A stretch of 64,000 nt of DNA. Origin: Shigella phage sb1. The translations under genes and the position numbers were made by a program. Below, piece by piece: positions 27,925 through 32,077 of this stretch. Location: sequence record PQ666539, one strand, 5' to 3'. Under the pieces are notes generated by a model that did not search any database, was not told where the DNA came from, and saw only the letters and a program-made list of their open reading frames with translations. The first letter of the stretch is position 1, and each line of letters begins with the position of its first letter.

Positions 27925-29982
27925 CTACATCTTGAACTTTTTAGACATTCCGTTGATGTTAACCAAAGAAGCCAAGATTTGAGAAACTTCGTTTTCCTCT
28001 TCTTTTGATTCTTCTACAAGGAATTGATTAAACCCAGCCATTGGACGAACTTCACCAGTTTCCATTAGATGGTCGCCATCATATACCGATTCTTCTAATT
28101 GTTCAGAAGGAGGAACGATTGTGCCTTCGATTAGATACTTATTATAGGCAGTTTCTTTCATCATGTACGTGCTCACTTTATTAATCTTCAGCAAAATTCC
28201 ACGCGGTAGAATAACTTCAGCTTCTGATGGAAATCCTGATAAATGACCTGGAACGATAACTTTAATTCGCTCAGCTCCTTTTATTACCATGCCTACAATA
28301 GCTTCAGCATCTTCATTAGCATATGCAGAATGACTACCCATATGCATTAAATCTTCAGCATCAACAGAACCTTCTCCTTCACCAGAAAATACTGCACCTG
28401 AATCATCTAGAGCCATATAGTTTTTACCATGCTCACCGAAGATATTTGGTTTAAGCGACGTGGATACGAAGTTCTTAAAATAGAACATTTTATTTTCAAT
28501 ATTATGACGTAAAGTTTTAAAAGTAACTTCTTGCCCACGATAAAGCGTAGTTCCTGGAGGAAGAAATGATCCTTTGGCGAATGCAGAATCCAGCGTCTCG
28601 ATGTGTTTAATAGCTCGTTCCATGTATTCTTCACGGGTAGAATCTGGTTTACCCAAGAGGAACGAGTTCATTTCAACATATGAATATGCACAATAATCTT
28701 CAATTACATCAGACTCAGCCTGAGTTAATCCTTTTGGAGTTACTTCGGTGCTTGCATATTCATATGCCTGAGCAGCAGATTCATTAATCAATTTATAAAT
28801 GCCATTCATGACAAATCGAATAATAGCTACCTTTTCGTCTGGTGTGGCTTTAGAACCTTTAACTAAATCATTGATAATTTTCTTAATAACATCAAAGCTA
28901 TTAGAAATATTAATGTCAGCGAGATCGCTCAAAATTTTATCGGTTTTATAATCAAAGAATTCTTTATTCTTTAAATATTCTTGAGAACCTTGATATGTTA
29001 TATCGCTCTGCAGTCTGATAGACGGATCGCGTAAACGTGCATGGGCCAATGCAATATCATTTCGGAAGCTTTCTAGTTCATAATCGTTAGATTTAAAACG
29101 AGAAGCACTTCTCATACCACCGATAGCTCCTTTGCTGAAGTTGGAACCAATCTGAATAACACCAGAGTTCATTGGTCCTTCTGCTTTATATACCGGAACT
29201 TTAGATTCAAACTCTTGATATTTCTTGGCGGCGAAGCTATCGCCCTGAAGTGAAGCATCGACAGTAGAATATTGAGCTTGTGCTGCTAATCGACGGCTAA
29301 TTTTAGTTTTCTGAATAACAGCTTGATCCGTGCGCTTATCATTTTCTAAAGCAATAGAAGCAGCCACAGCAACGGCTTTAGGAACAGCATTACCTGTTTT
29401 AACATCTACATAAACATCACCAACCTTTGATTCAACTTTTGTGAATAACTAAGTTGAAATAGGAGGTACACCTGGAATGTCTTCTAAATTGGCATTTTTA
29501 CGGTAAACCATAATATATGCATACTTTTTATCATAATCCCAGATTTCTTTTAAAAGAACATATCGACCTGCTCCTTTAGTACGTACTAAAAGGTCAGCAA
29601 TAACTTGTATCTGACGAGCAGCGCCATTTGTTTTACTTTTTAGTACGCGGAATAGGCATGCGTCAATTTTATACTGTTTCATTGTTTGAAGAGCAGTATC
29701 AAAAACCGCATTAATGACACCAATTGGATTTCCACCCAAGTTTTTAAGTTTAACTAATGATAGTTTCTCATTGACAACTATCATTACGATATGCATCATT
29801 TTATCTCCTGGCTTAACGTTTTTATTTGTATCACCGCCAGAGGTGTATGTACAAAATCTAAATCCAGGAAGTACACTTTCTTCGCCGGCTTGAATAGCAA
29901 AAATTTGAGGTATTTTATGCTTAGGATTTAAGTTAACAACCGGCGCTGAAGCGCCGTCAAATAATTCTGTAATAAGTTCCAT
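27925..29982 (-). CDS. Alt-like ADP-ribosyltransferase paralog, interrupted by in-frame TAG (minus strand) at 29449-29451
   Basis: 177-aa and 480-aa pieces in the same frame; the full span is 685 codons, the same length as the adjacent alt ORF, with the same conserved N-terminus and FYFKNFVSTSL core. Confidence 0.75.
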
Positions 29983-29985
29983 GAT

Positions 29986-32040
29986 TTATCCTTGAACGAA
30001 CTTGTAAGGCATGTTTGTAATATCTATGCAAGACGCAATAATTCCAAGAGATGATTCTACTTTTTGTTTAACATTTGATGAAACAAATGATGCAAAGTCA
30101 ACTCTGTCTTCTATTTCAATATCATCCGTCATTGCAACTACTTCGCCAGTTTCCATTAGACGGTCACCGTCATAAATTACGGATTCGGTGAGTTCTTCCG
30201 TAGTCATAACTTCAGCTTGAATGAGCTTGTTGTTAGTTTTAGCTGTTCCATCATTGTAAGATGCGTCGGTTATTTTATTGACTTTGACCATCAATCCACG
30301 CGGCAAAATGACTTCCATTTCATTTGAAGGCGCTAAACTTCCACCTGGTAAAACAACGTTGACTTTATCAGCCCCAGTAATAACCCATCCAATTCCAACT
30401 AAATTATCGCTAGAATTAACAAGTCCTTCATCGTTTTTATCGATAGAAATGTTTAGACGCTTTTCGTCTGGTAAAACACCCACAGCTGAATCAGTCATCC
30501 AAGTACCAAAAATGTTTGGATATAATGATGTTGATACAAAATTTCTAAAATAAAAAACTCGATTTTTTACCAATGCTTCATATATTGAAGGTAACATTCG
30601 CTGTGAACGATATAAAGTAATACCTTTTGGCAGTCGATCACCGTTTTTAAAGGCTGAATCTAAATTATCGATGGCTTGTTCTATTTCTGGTGCTGTTAAA
30701 ATACTTGTACGCTCATCTGGATTATATAATCCCAAAAGAGCATTATTCATGTCTACATATCCTGAACCTACGTATTCACGAATTCCGCGTTTTTGTGCCG
30801 GTGTGTATTTAGATGAATCTTTATTTTCGACTATAGAATGCAATGACCATCCAACGGTAAGAGCATATCCACGTAATTCTCTTCGAATAATCTTTGTTTT
30901 TATTGCATTCCAAGAATTTTGCACTAACTCATTCGCAGCATCTTGATTTAAATGCGAATGCTTGTTAATATTTCTTTCTAACCAAGCACCTTTATATTTT
31001 TCTAAAGTATCATCAACTATAGAAGCAATAGTTTCTAAAGTTTTTATTGAAGTAATAGATTCTTTTCGTAATCTTTCTAAAGCTTTATTTTTTATTTCTG
31101 CATTAACATCAGATTCTTTATCTTCAGGAATTATAGAAGCTTCTCTGAATGCCATTCCAGCTGTAACACTATTAAGAGCATTCTCTAATGCAAATCCTGA
31201 AGTAGAAATAACAGTTAATTCGTTAGCATCAGAAATTAAAGGCGCGTCAGCGGGTTTATTTAATTCTGCTGCTGAAGCCTCAAATTTTTGAAACATTGGT
31301 GTTTCAAATCTAGAAGATTCCAATGACTGACTTTGTGCAATTGCTCTACGGGAAATTTTAACTTTAACGATTACAGCTTGGTCAGAACGTTTATCATTTT
31401 CTTGTGCAATAGATGCTGCAATTGCATCATTTTTAGTTACTTGAGCTCCAGTATCTTTATTGATATAAACATCACCGACCTTCGATTCAACTTTAGTAAA
31501 GAGCTCGGTACTAATTTCAGGAACTCCTGGAATGTCTTCTAGCGATACATTTTTGCGATGTATAAGAATATATGCATACTTTTTATCGTAATCCCAGAGT
31601 TCCTTAAGAAGGACGTATCTGCCACCTGAACGACTACGGATAAGTCTATCAGCAATAAGTTGAATTTGTCGAGCTTGACCAGCAGTTTTAGACTTAAGAA
31701 TACGGAGCATGCAGGCATCAATTTTATACTGACGCATCGTTTGCATCGCAACAGTAAAAACTGAATTGATGTAATTAATTGGGCTTGGACCGAGACCTTT
31801 CAATTTAGAAATTGAACATTTAGCAGTTAATGTAAAAGGAACAATATGCATCATTTTATCGCCCATCTTTAAATCGCGGTTAGTATCACCTCCAGATGTA
31901 TAGGTACACAAACGAAAGCCTGGTTGTTCAATTGCTTCATCAACATGAACTGAAAAAATTTGCGGTATTTTCTTTTTTGGATTTAAGTTTGTAATTGGAA
32001 GAGTAGTATCTTCGTCAAATAATTCTGTAATGAGTTCCAT
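29986..32040 (-). CDS. alt: Alt ADP-ribosyltransferase (ORF extends one ATG further, to 32043)
   Basis: Continuous 685-aa ORF; sequence recognised as T4 Alt. Confidence 0.85.
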   Translation of the reverse strand: MELITELFDEDTTLPITNLNPKKKIPQIFSVHVDEAIEQPGFRLCTYTSGGDTNRDLKMGDKMMHIVPFTLTAKCSISKLKGLGPSPINYINSVFTVAMQTMRQYKIDACMLRILKSKTAGQARQIQLIADRLIRSRSGGRYVLLKELWDYDKKYAYILIHRKNVSLEDIPGVPEISTELFTKVESKVGDVYINKDTGAQVTKNDAIAASIAQENDKRSDQAVIVKVKISRRAIAQSQSLESSRFETPMFQKFEASAAELNKPADAPLISDANELTVISTSGFALENALNSVTAGMAFREASIIPEDKESDVNAEIKNKALERLRKESITSIKTLETIASIVDDTLEKYKGAWLERNINKHSHLNQDAANELVQNSWNAIKTKIIRRELRGYALTVGWSLHSIVENKDSSKYTPAQKRGIREYVGSGYVDMNNALLGLYNPDERTSILTAPEIEQAIDNLDSAFKNGDRLPKGITLYRSQRMLPSIYEALVKNRVFYFRNFVSTSLYPNIFGTWMTDSAVGVLPDEKRLNISIDKNDEGLVNSSDNLVGIGWVITGADKVNVVLPGGSLAPSNEMEVILPRGLMVKVNKITDASYNDGTAKTNNKLIQAEVMTTEELTESVIYDGDRLMETGEVVAMTDDIEIEDRVDFASFVSSNVKQKVESSLGIIASCIDITNMPYKFVQG

Positions 32041-32077
32041 CATATCCTCTCTAGTGTTTATTCTATTTATAAAATTA

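Follow-up and report, generated by a model that had tools for sequence, protein, structure and literature searches.

The DNA analysed here, a stretch of 64,000 nucleotides (hereafter the window), derives from a Tequatrovirus, a T4-like phage, and the best phage record is 97.9% identical to it. Two neighbouring open reading frames of 685 codons are situated on its minus strand, as described in the original prediction. The upstream gene, alt (29986-32043), is intact, has 685 codons when read from the first ATG and is the orthologue of T4 Alt; its start consists of two adjacent ATGs, and the second of these, which is the start annotated in relatives, gives 684 codons. The downstream gene, alt2 (27925-29982), encodes an Alt-like paralogue in a 685-codon frame interrupted by one in-frame TAG, and its start is separated from the alt stop codon by a gap of 3 nt. 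The order of the locus, running from the ligase gene through a 62-aa gene, alt, alt2 and alt.-3 to gp54, is that of T2, pSs-1 and Bas37. An exact match to the T4-type late promoter box TATAAATA lies on the minus strand at 32064-32071, 20 nt 5' of the alt start and just after a GC-rich hairpin (approximately 32077-32094) located 3' of the 62-aa upstream gene. Judged from what is known of T4 late promoters, this box probably drives late transcription; the window contains 24 matches to TATAAATA, where chance predicts 9.8. No late promoter box was found between alt and alt2, and the two genes, being only 3 nt apart, would be co-transcribed from the late promoter that precedes alt.

Beyond alt2, the alt.-3 homologue (27586-27864, minus strand) is identified by Pfam PF17602 (DUF5498, 203 bits). 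It comprises 92 codons in the window and 96 in T4 and pSs-1, the shortening having arisen because TCA has become TAA, a C>A change like that of the alt2 lesion discussed below. An early (sigma-70) promoter-like site for alt.-3, GTTTACA-17-TATAAT with an extended -10 TG, occupies 27896-27925 on the minus strand and has the top promoter-like score in the interval 27400-32400, with 11 of 12 matches together with the TG. This site begins at the final base of the alt2 stop codon, and T4 keeps an identical promoter-like sequence beside the deletion junction described below. The alt/alt2/alt.-3 block ends at a bidirectional intrinsic-terminator hairpin (27548-27569, both strands; 9-bp stem with 6 GC pairs), which lies between gp54 on the plus strand and alt.-3 on the minus strand.

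Alt and Alt2 align over their full length with 42% identity (BLASTP, E = 9e-161), which is far beyond chance. The identity is distributed unevenly, reaching 67.5% over residues 1-236, falling to only 20.6% over residues 237-415 and amounting to 35% in the ADP-ribosyltransferase (ART) domain, and the central divergence claimed earlier is thereby borne out. The common N-terminus and catalytic core are equally evident, as the quoted motifs MELITELFD, CTYTSGGDTN, FYF(K/R)NFVSTSL and E(A/M)EVILPRG are found in both copies. The Pfam profile PF03496 (ADPrib_exo_Tox, cut-off 23.4 bits) matches Alt with 117.9 bits over profile positions 1-195 of 196 and Alt2, with codon 178 read as Glu, with 70.4 bits over positions 13-191 of 196. 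In Alt (684-aa numbering), the active-site motifs are LYR476-478 (R478), STS503-505 (S503) and EME574-576 (E574 and E576); the alignment shows that Alt2 keeps these catalytic residues in LYR480-482 (R482), STS507-509 (S507) and EAE587-589 (E587 and E589). None of the catalytic motifs of either protein is touched by a window-private change. On this basis, both are predicted to be mono-ADP-ribosyltransferases of approximately 76 kDa and of the R-S-ExE (arginine-specific) type. NAD-dependent arginine ADP-ribosylation of target proteins is established for T4 Alt. The extent of amino-acid identity, the presence of PF03496 in both proteins and the R-S-ExE motifs in both identify Alt and Alt2 as old paralogues, in agreement with the original prediction.

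The wider family is that of the clostridial binary-toxin/C3-like R-S-E ARTs (PF03496; CdtA, iota and Vip2), whose model Alt and Alt2 fit nearly whole, including the YR, STS and ExE elements, although direct sequence matches between the phage proteins and the solved CdtA structures are weak (E ~ 0.005). Compared with the clostridial toxins, Alt and Alt2 add an N-terminal extension of about 415 residues without a Pfam match; the modes of delivery also differ, the phage proteins relying on the capsid and the clostridial toxins on a B component.

The window Alt is 95% identical in amino-acid sequence to T4 Alt (gpAlt), an NAD+--arginine ADP-ribosyltransferase and internal head protein, over the full and equal length. 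The two genes occupy the same site, between gene 30 (ligase)/30.-1 and gp54, and share the late promoter, the MELITE N-terminus and the R-S-ExE motifs without notable difference. Alt2, in turn, is the second Alt-like RNA polymerase ADP-ribosyltransferase of related phages (bas37_0032 of Bas37/KarlGJung, pSs1_00206 and T2 XUQ83099), a protein of 685 aa encoded likewise 3 nt after alt. Of the 499 phage records that match, about 400 have alt2 at full length on the DNA level, and the protein was intact and 97-98% identical in amino-acid sequence in all six cases checked (pSs-1, sb2, T2, KarlGJung and two IMG/VR contigs). Both genes are labelled as Alt-like ADP-ribosyltransferases in RefSeq and GenBank for pSs-1, sb2, T2, Bas37 and many more, and the second gene is named 'Alt2' in the BASEL phage Bas37. 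The Alt/Alt2 pair is thus already known and routinely annotated in Tequatrovirus genomes.

T4 has no intact copy of this paralogue. The original prediction had tentatively suggested that the small T4 ORFs alt.-1 and alt.-2 are remnants of it, and sequence comparison agrees: alt.-1/alt.-2 correspond to the first ~348 nt of alt2 joined to the final ~12 nt of the ORF, and they are 96-97% identical to alt2 codons 1-116, in contrast to the full-length gene of the window. In T4, a 1.69-kb deletion between two CTAAAAAGT repeats takes out alt2 codons ~117-681, and a 1-nt deletion (frameshift) splits the remnant into ORFs of 61 and 67 codons. The phage fPS-90 carries the T4-type 1.69-kb deletion too, but there codon 7 is a stop. 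For phages that match the first 573 nt only, a 'third type' of downstream gene was considered and rejected; in fPS-90, the one such phage checked, the match consists of the T4-type remnant plus a cross-match to the alt N-terminus. In Nolan et al. 2006 (PMC1524935), alt.-1 and alt.-2 are described as paralogues duplicated from alt.

The in-frame TAG of alt2 (29449-29451, minus strand) is codon 178 and results from C>A at plus-strand position 29451, that is, GAG>TAG in the coding sense. It stands, as predicted, where the upstream copy has Glu; the aligned codon of Alt is GAG, and relatives carry GAG at alt2 codon 178 itself. Among the phages compared, the TAG is confined to the window. Over the 71 nt around it, not one of 400 phage records matches perfectly (best match 70 of 71), and an amber-bearing 38-mer has no match in IMG/VR (viral), metagenome or genome collections. 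The amber allele is therefore neither shared by related isolates nor independently supported in the 400 records and three collections searched. Likewise, no exact record was found for the 177-aa N-terminal alt2 product or for the 684-aa Alt encoded in the window. Within alt2, five private missense changes of the same G>T/C>A class accompany the TAG (G69V, R131L, D433Y, V473F and S562I), and the four private changes of this class in alt are all missense (A79S, G76C, E206D and D36E).

Similar lesions extend across the window. In total, 32 in-frame stops (25 TAA, 3 TAG and 4 TGA) occur in 23 genes, so that the lesion is not specific to alt2 in an otherwise intact genome; 31 further stops, not seen in the original prediction, fall in 22 other genes. 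The genes hit include gp23 (the major capsid protein), TerL, TerS, the tail sheath, gp22, gp27 and gp29, and also gp48, gp32, NrdA and gp34-36, and the stops replace Glu, Gly, Ser, Tyr or Leu of relatives. Essential genes are thus among those affected; examples of stop positions are 11617-11619 in gp23, 2975-2977 and 3461-3463 in terL and 53210-53212 in gp32. The window-private changes comprise 177 C>A and 180 G>T (~357, or ~1.5% of G:C pairs), compared with 15-33 for these classes among the changes private to pSs-1 or to sb2. They are spread over codon positions 1, 2 and 3 as 122, 101 and 108, and 72% are missense, whereas 79% of the window-private transitions are synonymous. Nonsense changes account for 9.1% of the class versus 11.7% expected at random (p = 0.15). 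The rate is 1.51% for coding-strand G, 1.58% for coding-strand C and 1.64% in intergenic DNA; the spacing of the changes is near Poisson, and neither a sequence context nor strand runs were found among them. Strand-coordinated damage was rejected, as a runs test of G>T against C>A along the window gave z = -1.2 and the changes favour neither transcription strand. Frameshifts are absent from the window, where 78 of 81 genes give a single full-length tblastn match. This overlay of G>T and C>A changes is uniform, context-free and unselected, and the four missense changes in alt probably belong to it. In alt2, 86 sites are convertible to a stop by G>T or C>A, and the overlay rate predicts 1.1-1.3 stops in the gene.

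Taken together, it is very probable that the tandem is the standard Tequatrovirus alt-alt2 pair and that the TAG of alt2 is one change of an artefactual overlay. The overlay itself most likely arose as an artefact of sequencing, of assembly or of template damage, or because the record was corrupted in some other way. Basecalling error of the nanopore type on glucosyl-hydroxymethylcytosine DNA is an unlikely source in view of the lack of frameshifts and of context dependence. A laboratory amber mutant was also considered and rejected: the amber mutations of classical T4 work are transitions, whereas the window shows G>T transversions, and TAA or TGA accounts for 29 of its 32 stops. Perhaps 60-90 of the 357 changes represent genuine divergence, and for this reason a real origin of the codon-178 change is formally possible. 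If the TAG were a genuine natural nonsense allele, the phage would be Alt2-null and would produce a 177-aa N-terminal fragment, possibly together with a 480-aa product restarted from GTG 29367, which would lack the packaging module but contain the ART domain; an ORF of 480 aa does follow the TAG. A true null allele would be tolerable, because the deletion shared by T4 and fPS-90, together with secondary lesions, indicates that Alt2 is dispensable in nature. Such an allele is nevertheless very unlikely, as the change belongs to a class that is over-represented ~6-12 times in the window with no trace of selection, the predicted yield of the overlay is by itself sufficient for one stop in alt2, the five companion missense changes are of the same class and none of the 400 records shares the TAG.

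Readthrough, by which stop-codon reassignment or a suppressor tRNA of phage or host would restore full-length Alt2 and the other interrupted proteins, can practically be dismissed. T-even phages do encode tRNAs, amber suppression belongs to classical T4 genetics, and the tRNA cluster would fall outside the window, within which no tRNA gene was found. However, TAA, TAG and TGA all occur in frame in place of E, G, S, Y and L, and no single decoding rule fits three stop types with such mixed replaced residues; this mixture effectively refutes the idea. Moreover, missense changes of the same class are equally unselected, and the genes still terminate at ordinary stops in the same places as in relatives. 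It is also highly improbable that the overlay is biological, that is, that one or a few molecules of a non-viable genome were captured after oxidation (8-oxoG) or G-targeting hypermutation, the amber being real in those molecules and not in the replicating lineage. The uniform rate over strands, contexts and intergenic DNA and the lack of frameshifts are consistent with such an origin, and G:C>T:A changes alone without indels are the classical signature of 8-oxoguanine. Yet no feature separates it from a technical artefact, ~1.5% of G:C pairs fixed in a consensus is a very high level, and the changes show neither the clustering nor the strand coordination that a lesion-bearing strand or an enzymatic editor usually leaves. 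Equally little credence is given to the broader proposition that the overlay records real lethal hypermutation or oxidative damage, for example by a host process attacking guanines, or, in a milder form, that the amber is a true Alt2-null allele of a second injected ART that has its own host or defence target and was lost by T4.

With the artefactual overlay as the preferred reading, the amber codon, which the original prediction had presented as a notable property of the gene, loses that status: it is a single change absent from the 400 records and part of a window-wide class of ~357. We judge it to be a sequence artefact or an unselected lesion and not a biological feature, and, as one of 32 stops arising from unselected changes, it is uninformative on the biology of Alt2. 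Other readings of this window that depend on stop codons, 'pseudogenes' or odd residues should all be discounted in the same way.

Regarding the biology of the pair, the alpha subunit of RNA polymerase, MazF and other proteins are the published targets of T4 Alt. In Alt2, the divergence of the middle region and of the ART loops suggests that the target set may differ from that of Alt, a possibility also raised in the original prediction. Alt is a prohead-core protein whose 7-residue N-terminal propeptide and C-terminus are cut by gp21 and which is ejected into the host (PMC9026906). Both Alt and Alt2 begin with MELITE followed by LFD, where I-T-E is comparable to the L/I-x-E after which gp21 cuts, and both contain LME followed by TGE near the C-terminus; these junctions are candidate gp21 sites, the C-terminal one being proposed from the sequence. 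Both proteins would enter the prohead core via their common N-terminal module of ~235 residues, would be trimmed by the gp21 protease after MELITE and probably also between LME and TGE, and would be injected with the DNA, then modifying host proteins.

As a discovery, the finding is minor, since the pair is routinely annotated and a 2006 paper had already related alt.-1/alt.-2 to alt. The literature searched yielded no experimental study of Alt2, probably because the model phage T4 lacks alt2, and the HIDEN-SEQ preprint treats bas37_0033 (Alt) only, with bas37_0032 absent from its discussion. The interest of Alt2 rests on the relatives and not on anything peculiar to the window: in those checked it is intact and highly conserved, yet it is missing from T4. 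Alt has recently been connected with escape from MazF and from Mokosh type I, and Alt2 can therefore reasonably be proposed as a candidate second effector injected by the phage.

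The window belongs to Tequatrovirus, the T4-like phages; the segment 27500-32300 shares 97.9% identity with Shigella phages sb2 and pSs-1 and is matched by 503 phage records. Two ORFs lie in tandem on its minus strand, separated by only 3 nt. The upstream gene, alt (29986-32043), is an open ORF of 685 codons, or 684 if counted from the second ATG of an adjacent pair, and is the T4 Alt orthologue (95% amino-acid identity over the full length). The downstream gene, alt2 (27925-29982), is a 685-codon frame with a single interruption, a TAG at 29449-29451 (codon 178). Aligned end to end, the two translations share 42% identity (E = 9e-161), which, in Alt2 numbering, reaches 67.5% in residues 1-236 and falls to 20.6% in residues 237-415; the ADP-ribosyltransferase domains share approximately 35%. 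Both proteins match Pfam PF03496 (ADPrib_exo_Tox; 117.9 bits for Alt and 70.4 for Alt2, cut-off 23.4), and the Arg / S-T-S / E-x-E motifs that mark arginine-specific transferases occur in each, at LYR476-478, STS503-505, and EME574-576 in Alt and at LYR480-482, STS507-509, and EAE587-589 in Alt2, the catalytic residues being retained on alignment in the second copy. The ORFs, the alignment, the PF03496 matches, and the motifs therefore bear out the original prediction of two tandem full-length Alt-type paralogues, the downstream one with an amber codon.

The pair and its link to the T4 remnants are already known. The downstream gene is annotated as a second 'Alt-like RNA polymerase ADP-ribosyltransferase' in pSs-1, sb2, and T2, and as 'ADP-ribosyltransferase Alt2' in the BASEL phage Bas37 (KarlGJung). 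At the DNA level, at least 80% of alt2 is covered in approximately 400 of the 499 matching records, and the protein is intact in all six relatives checked, with 97-98% identity. Meanwhile, Alt itself (29986-32043, minus strand) is dimorphic among close relatives: pSs-1, sb2, T4, fPS-90, and a further relative (L010) carry a T4-type allele with 95-99% amino-acid identity to the window, and T2, Bas37, and another relative (L009) carry an allele of approximately 70% identity that is about 13 residues longer; the neighboring Alt2 is equally conserved in both backgrounds. The Bas37 Alt is reported to be unable to substitute for T4 Alt against Mokosh type I (HIDEN-SEQ preprint).

Around the pair, a T4 late-promoter box, TATAAATA, is located on the minus strand at 32064-32071, 20 nt upstream of the alt start, and adjoins a GC-rich hairpin (approximately 32077-32094). 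The hairpin follows a 62-aa gene (32093-32281, minus strand) that is flanked by alt and the DNA ligase gene and matches Pfam PF24647 'Phage blade protein' with 97 bits. Downstream of alt2 come, in this order, the region's strongest sigma-70-like site (27924-27896, minus strand; TTTACA-17-TATAAT with TG), the alt.-3 homologue (DUF5498; 27586-27864, minus strand), and a bidirectional terminator (27548-27569). This homologue has 92 aa against 96, shortened by four codons through a TCA>TAA change of the C>A class; in T4, the alleles that allow escape from the CmdTAC defence system are C-terminal extensions of Alt.-3 (PMC11618068).

In the case of T4, the position after alt is occupied by two ORFs of 61 and 67 codons, alt.-1 and alt.-2, whose relation to alt was published in 2006 (PMC1524935). 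The suggestion that they are remnants of the same paralogue is right: they align, with 96.6% identity, to the first approximately 348 nt of alt2, an A-run is one A short, and the resulting frameshift generates the two small ORFs; no intact identical paralogue was found in T4 by alignment. At the junction, the sequence passes from CTAAAAAGT at approximately codon 116 to a second copy of this 9-mer, 12 nt ahead of the alt2 stop; T4 has lost 1.69 kb of alt2 by deletion between direct repeats. In Yersinia phage fPS-90 the junction is identical, but the frameshift is absent and a stop is found at codon 7 instead (remnants compared with 27925-29982: 4001-4420 in T4, 4629-5050 in fPS-90). The shared junction and the different secondary lesions point to a single deletion event, which may have spread or been inherited, followed by independent decay.

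The amber codon had been treated as notable. Codon 178 is GAG in the relatives; hence, the window differs by one coding-sense G>T change (plus-strand C>A at 29451). The 71 nt around it are identical in none of 400 phage records (best 70/71), and the amber-bearing 38-mer was not found in the IMG/VR, metagenome, and genome collections, in which the GAG version was found. Among the neighboring genes, gp48 is interrupted by an in-frame stop too, and when every pSs-1 protein was compared with the window by tblastn, 32 in-frame stops (25 TAA, 3 TAG, and 4 TGA) emerged in 23 genes, including many essential ones. Among others, these are terS, terL (two), tail sheath, gp22 (two), gp23 (major capsid protein), uvsY, gp51, gp27 (two), gp29, gp48, alc (two), rnlA (two), nrdA (two), gp32, gp34 (four), gp35, and gp36, with stops, for example, at 1858, 2975, 3461, 4125, 10042, 10312, 11617, 19075, 20141, 21609, 22634, 23075, 23897, 25684, 35336, 39687, 43017, 43196, 43382, 44238, 44391, 48397, 48400, 53210, 56717, 56786, 57647, 59156, 60109, and 61230. 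With gp23, terminase, and gp32 interrupted, no phage with the genome as written could replicate. The mixed stop types and the several residues replaced (in the relatives Glu, Gly, Ser, Tyr, or Leu) rule out both stop-codon reassignment and suppression; no tRNA genes were found within the 64-kb window.

Polarised with pSs-1 and sb2, the window holds 177 private C>A and 180 private G>T changes, compared with 15-33 per class in the private sets of those two relatives. These changes fall evenly on codon positions 1, 2, and 3 (122/101/108), on coding-strand G (1.51%), coding-strand C (1.58%), and intergenic DNA (1.64%), and in coding sequence 72% are missense and 9.1% nonsense, near the 11.7% expected at random (p = 0.15), indicating that they are unselected. 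By comparison, 79% of the window-private transitions are synonymous, and codon position 3 accounts for 767 of the 965. No trinucleotide or ±6-nt context was found, strand runs of G>T against C>A give z = -1.2, and spacing is near Poisson; frameshifts are essentially absent, 78 of 81 genes giving one full-length tblastn match. The window is thus a genuine selected Tequatrovirus sequence under an overlay of approximately 300 G:C>T:A changes never exposed to selection, the class as a whole counting about 357 (about 1.5% of G:C pairs). Other findings in it that draw on stop codons, pseudogenes, or single residues are suspect.

In alt2, the same class accounts for the private missense changes G69V, R131L, D433Y, V473F, and S562I. 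Such a change creates a stop at 86 alt2 sites, from which the overlay alone predicts 1.1-1.3 stops against the one observed; the amber is one of these many unselected changes and no property of the gene itself. In principle it could be a genuine natural null allele, as T4 shows Alt2 to be dispensable in nature, but this reading is superfluous for explaining the data and very improbable. A pure G:C>T:A pattern with no indels is classically the mark of 8-oxoguanine. A biological source of the overlay, through hypermutation or oxidative damage of a non-viable genome, would look the same in the sequence as a technical artefact and is considered highly unlikely.

T4 Alt is a prohead-core protein of approximately 40 copies. 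The gp21 protease cuts an N-terminal propeptide of 7 residues from it and processes its C-terminus as well; Alt leaves the virion together with the DNA and ADP-ribosylates the RNA polymerase of the host (PMC9026906). Action on MazF and a contribution to evading Mokosh type I are reported for Alt as well (preprint 10.1101/2025.11.20.689424); the literature search found no paper on Alt2. Both proteins share the MELITE start, a 236-residue N-terminal module, LMETGE near the C-terminus, and the catalytic motifs, and alt2 probably lies within the late transcription unit of alt. Judging from these common features and the shared unit, Alt2 would be packaged, trimmed, and injected like Alt, and its divergent central region and ART loops may confer a target range unlike that of Alt.
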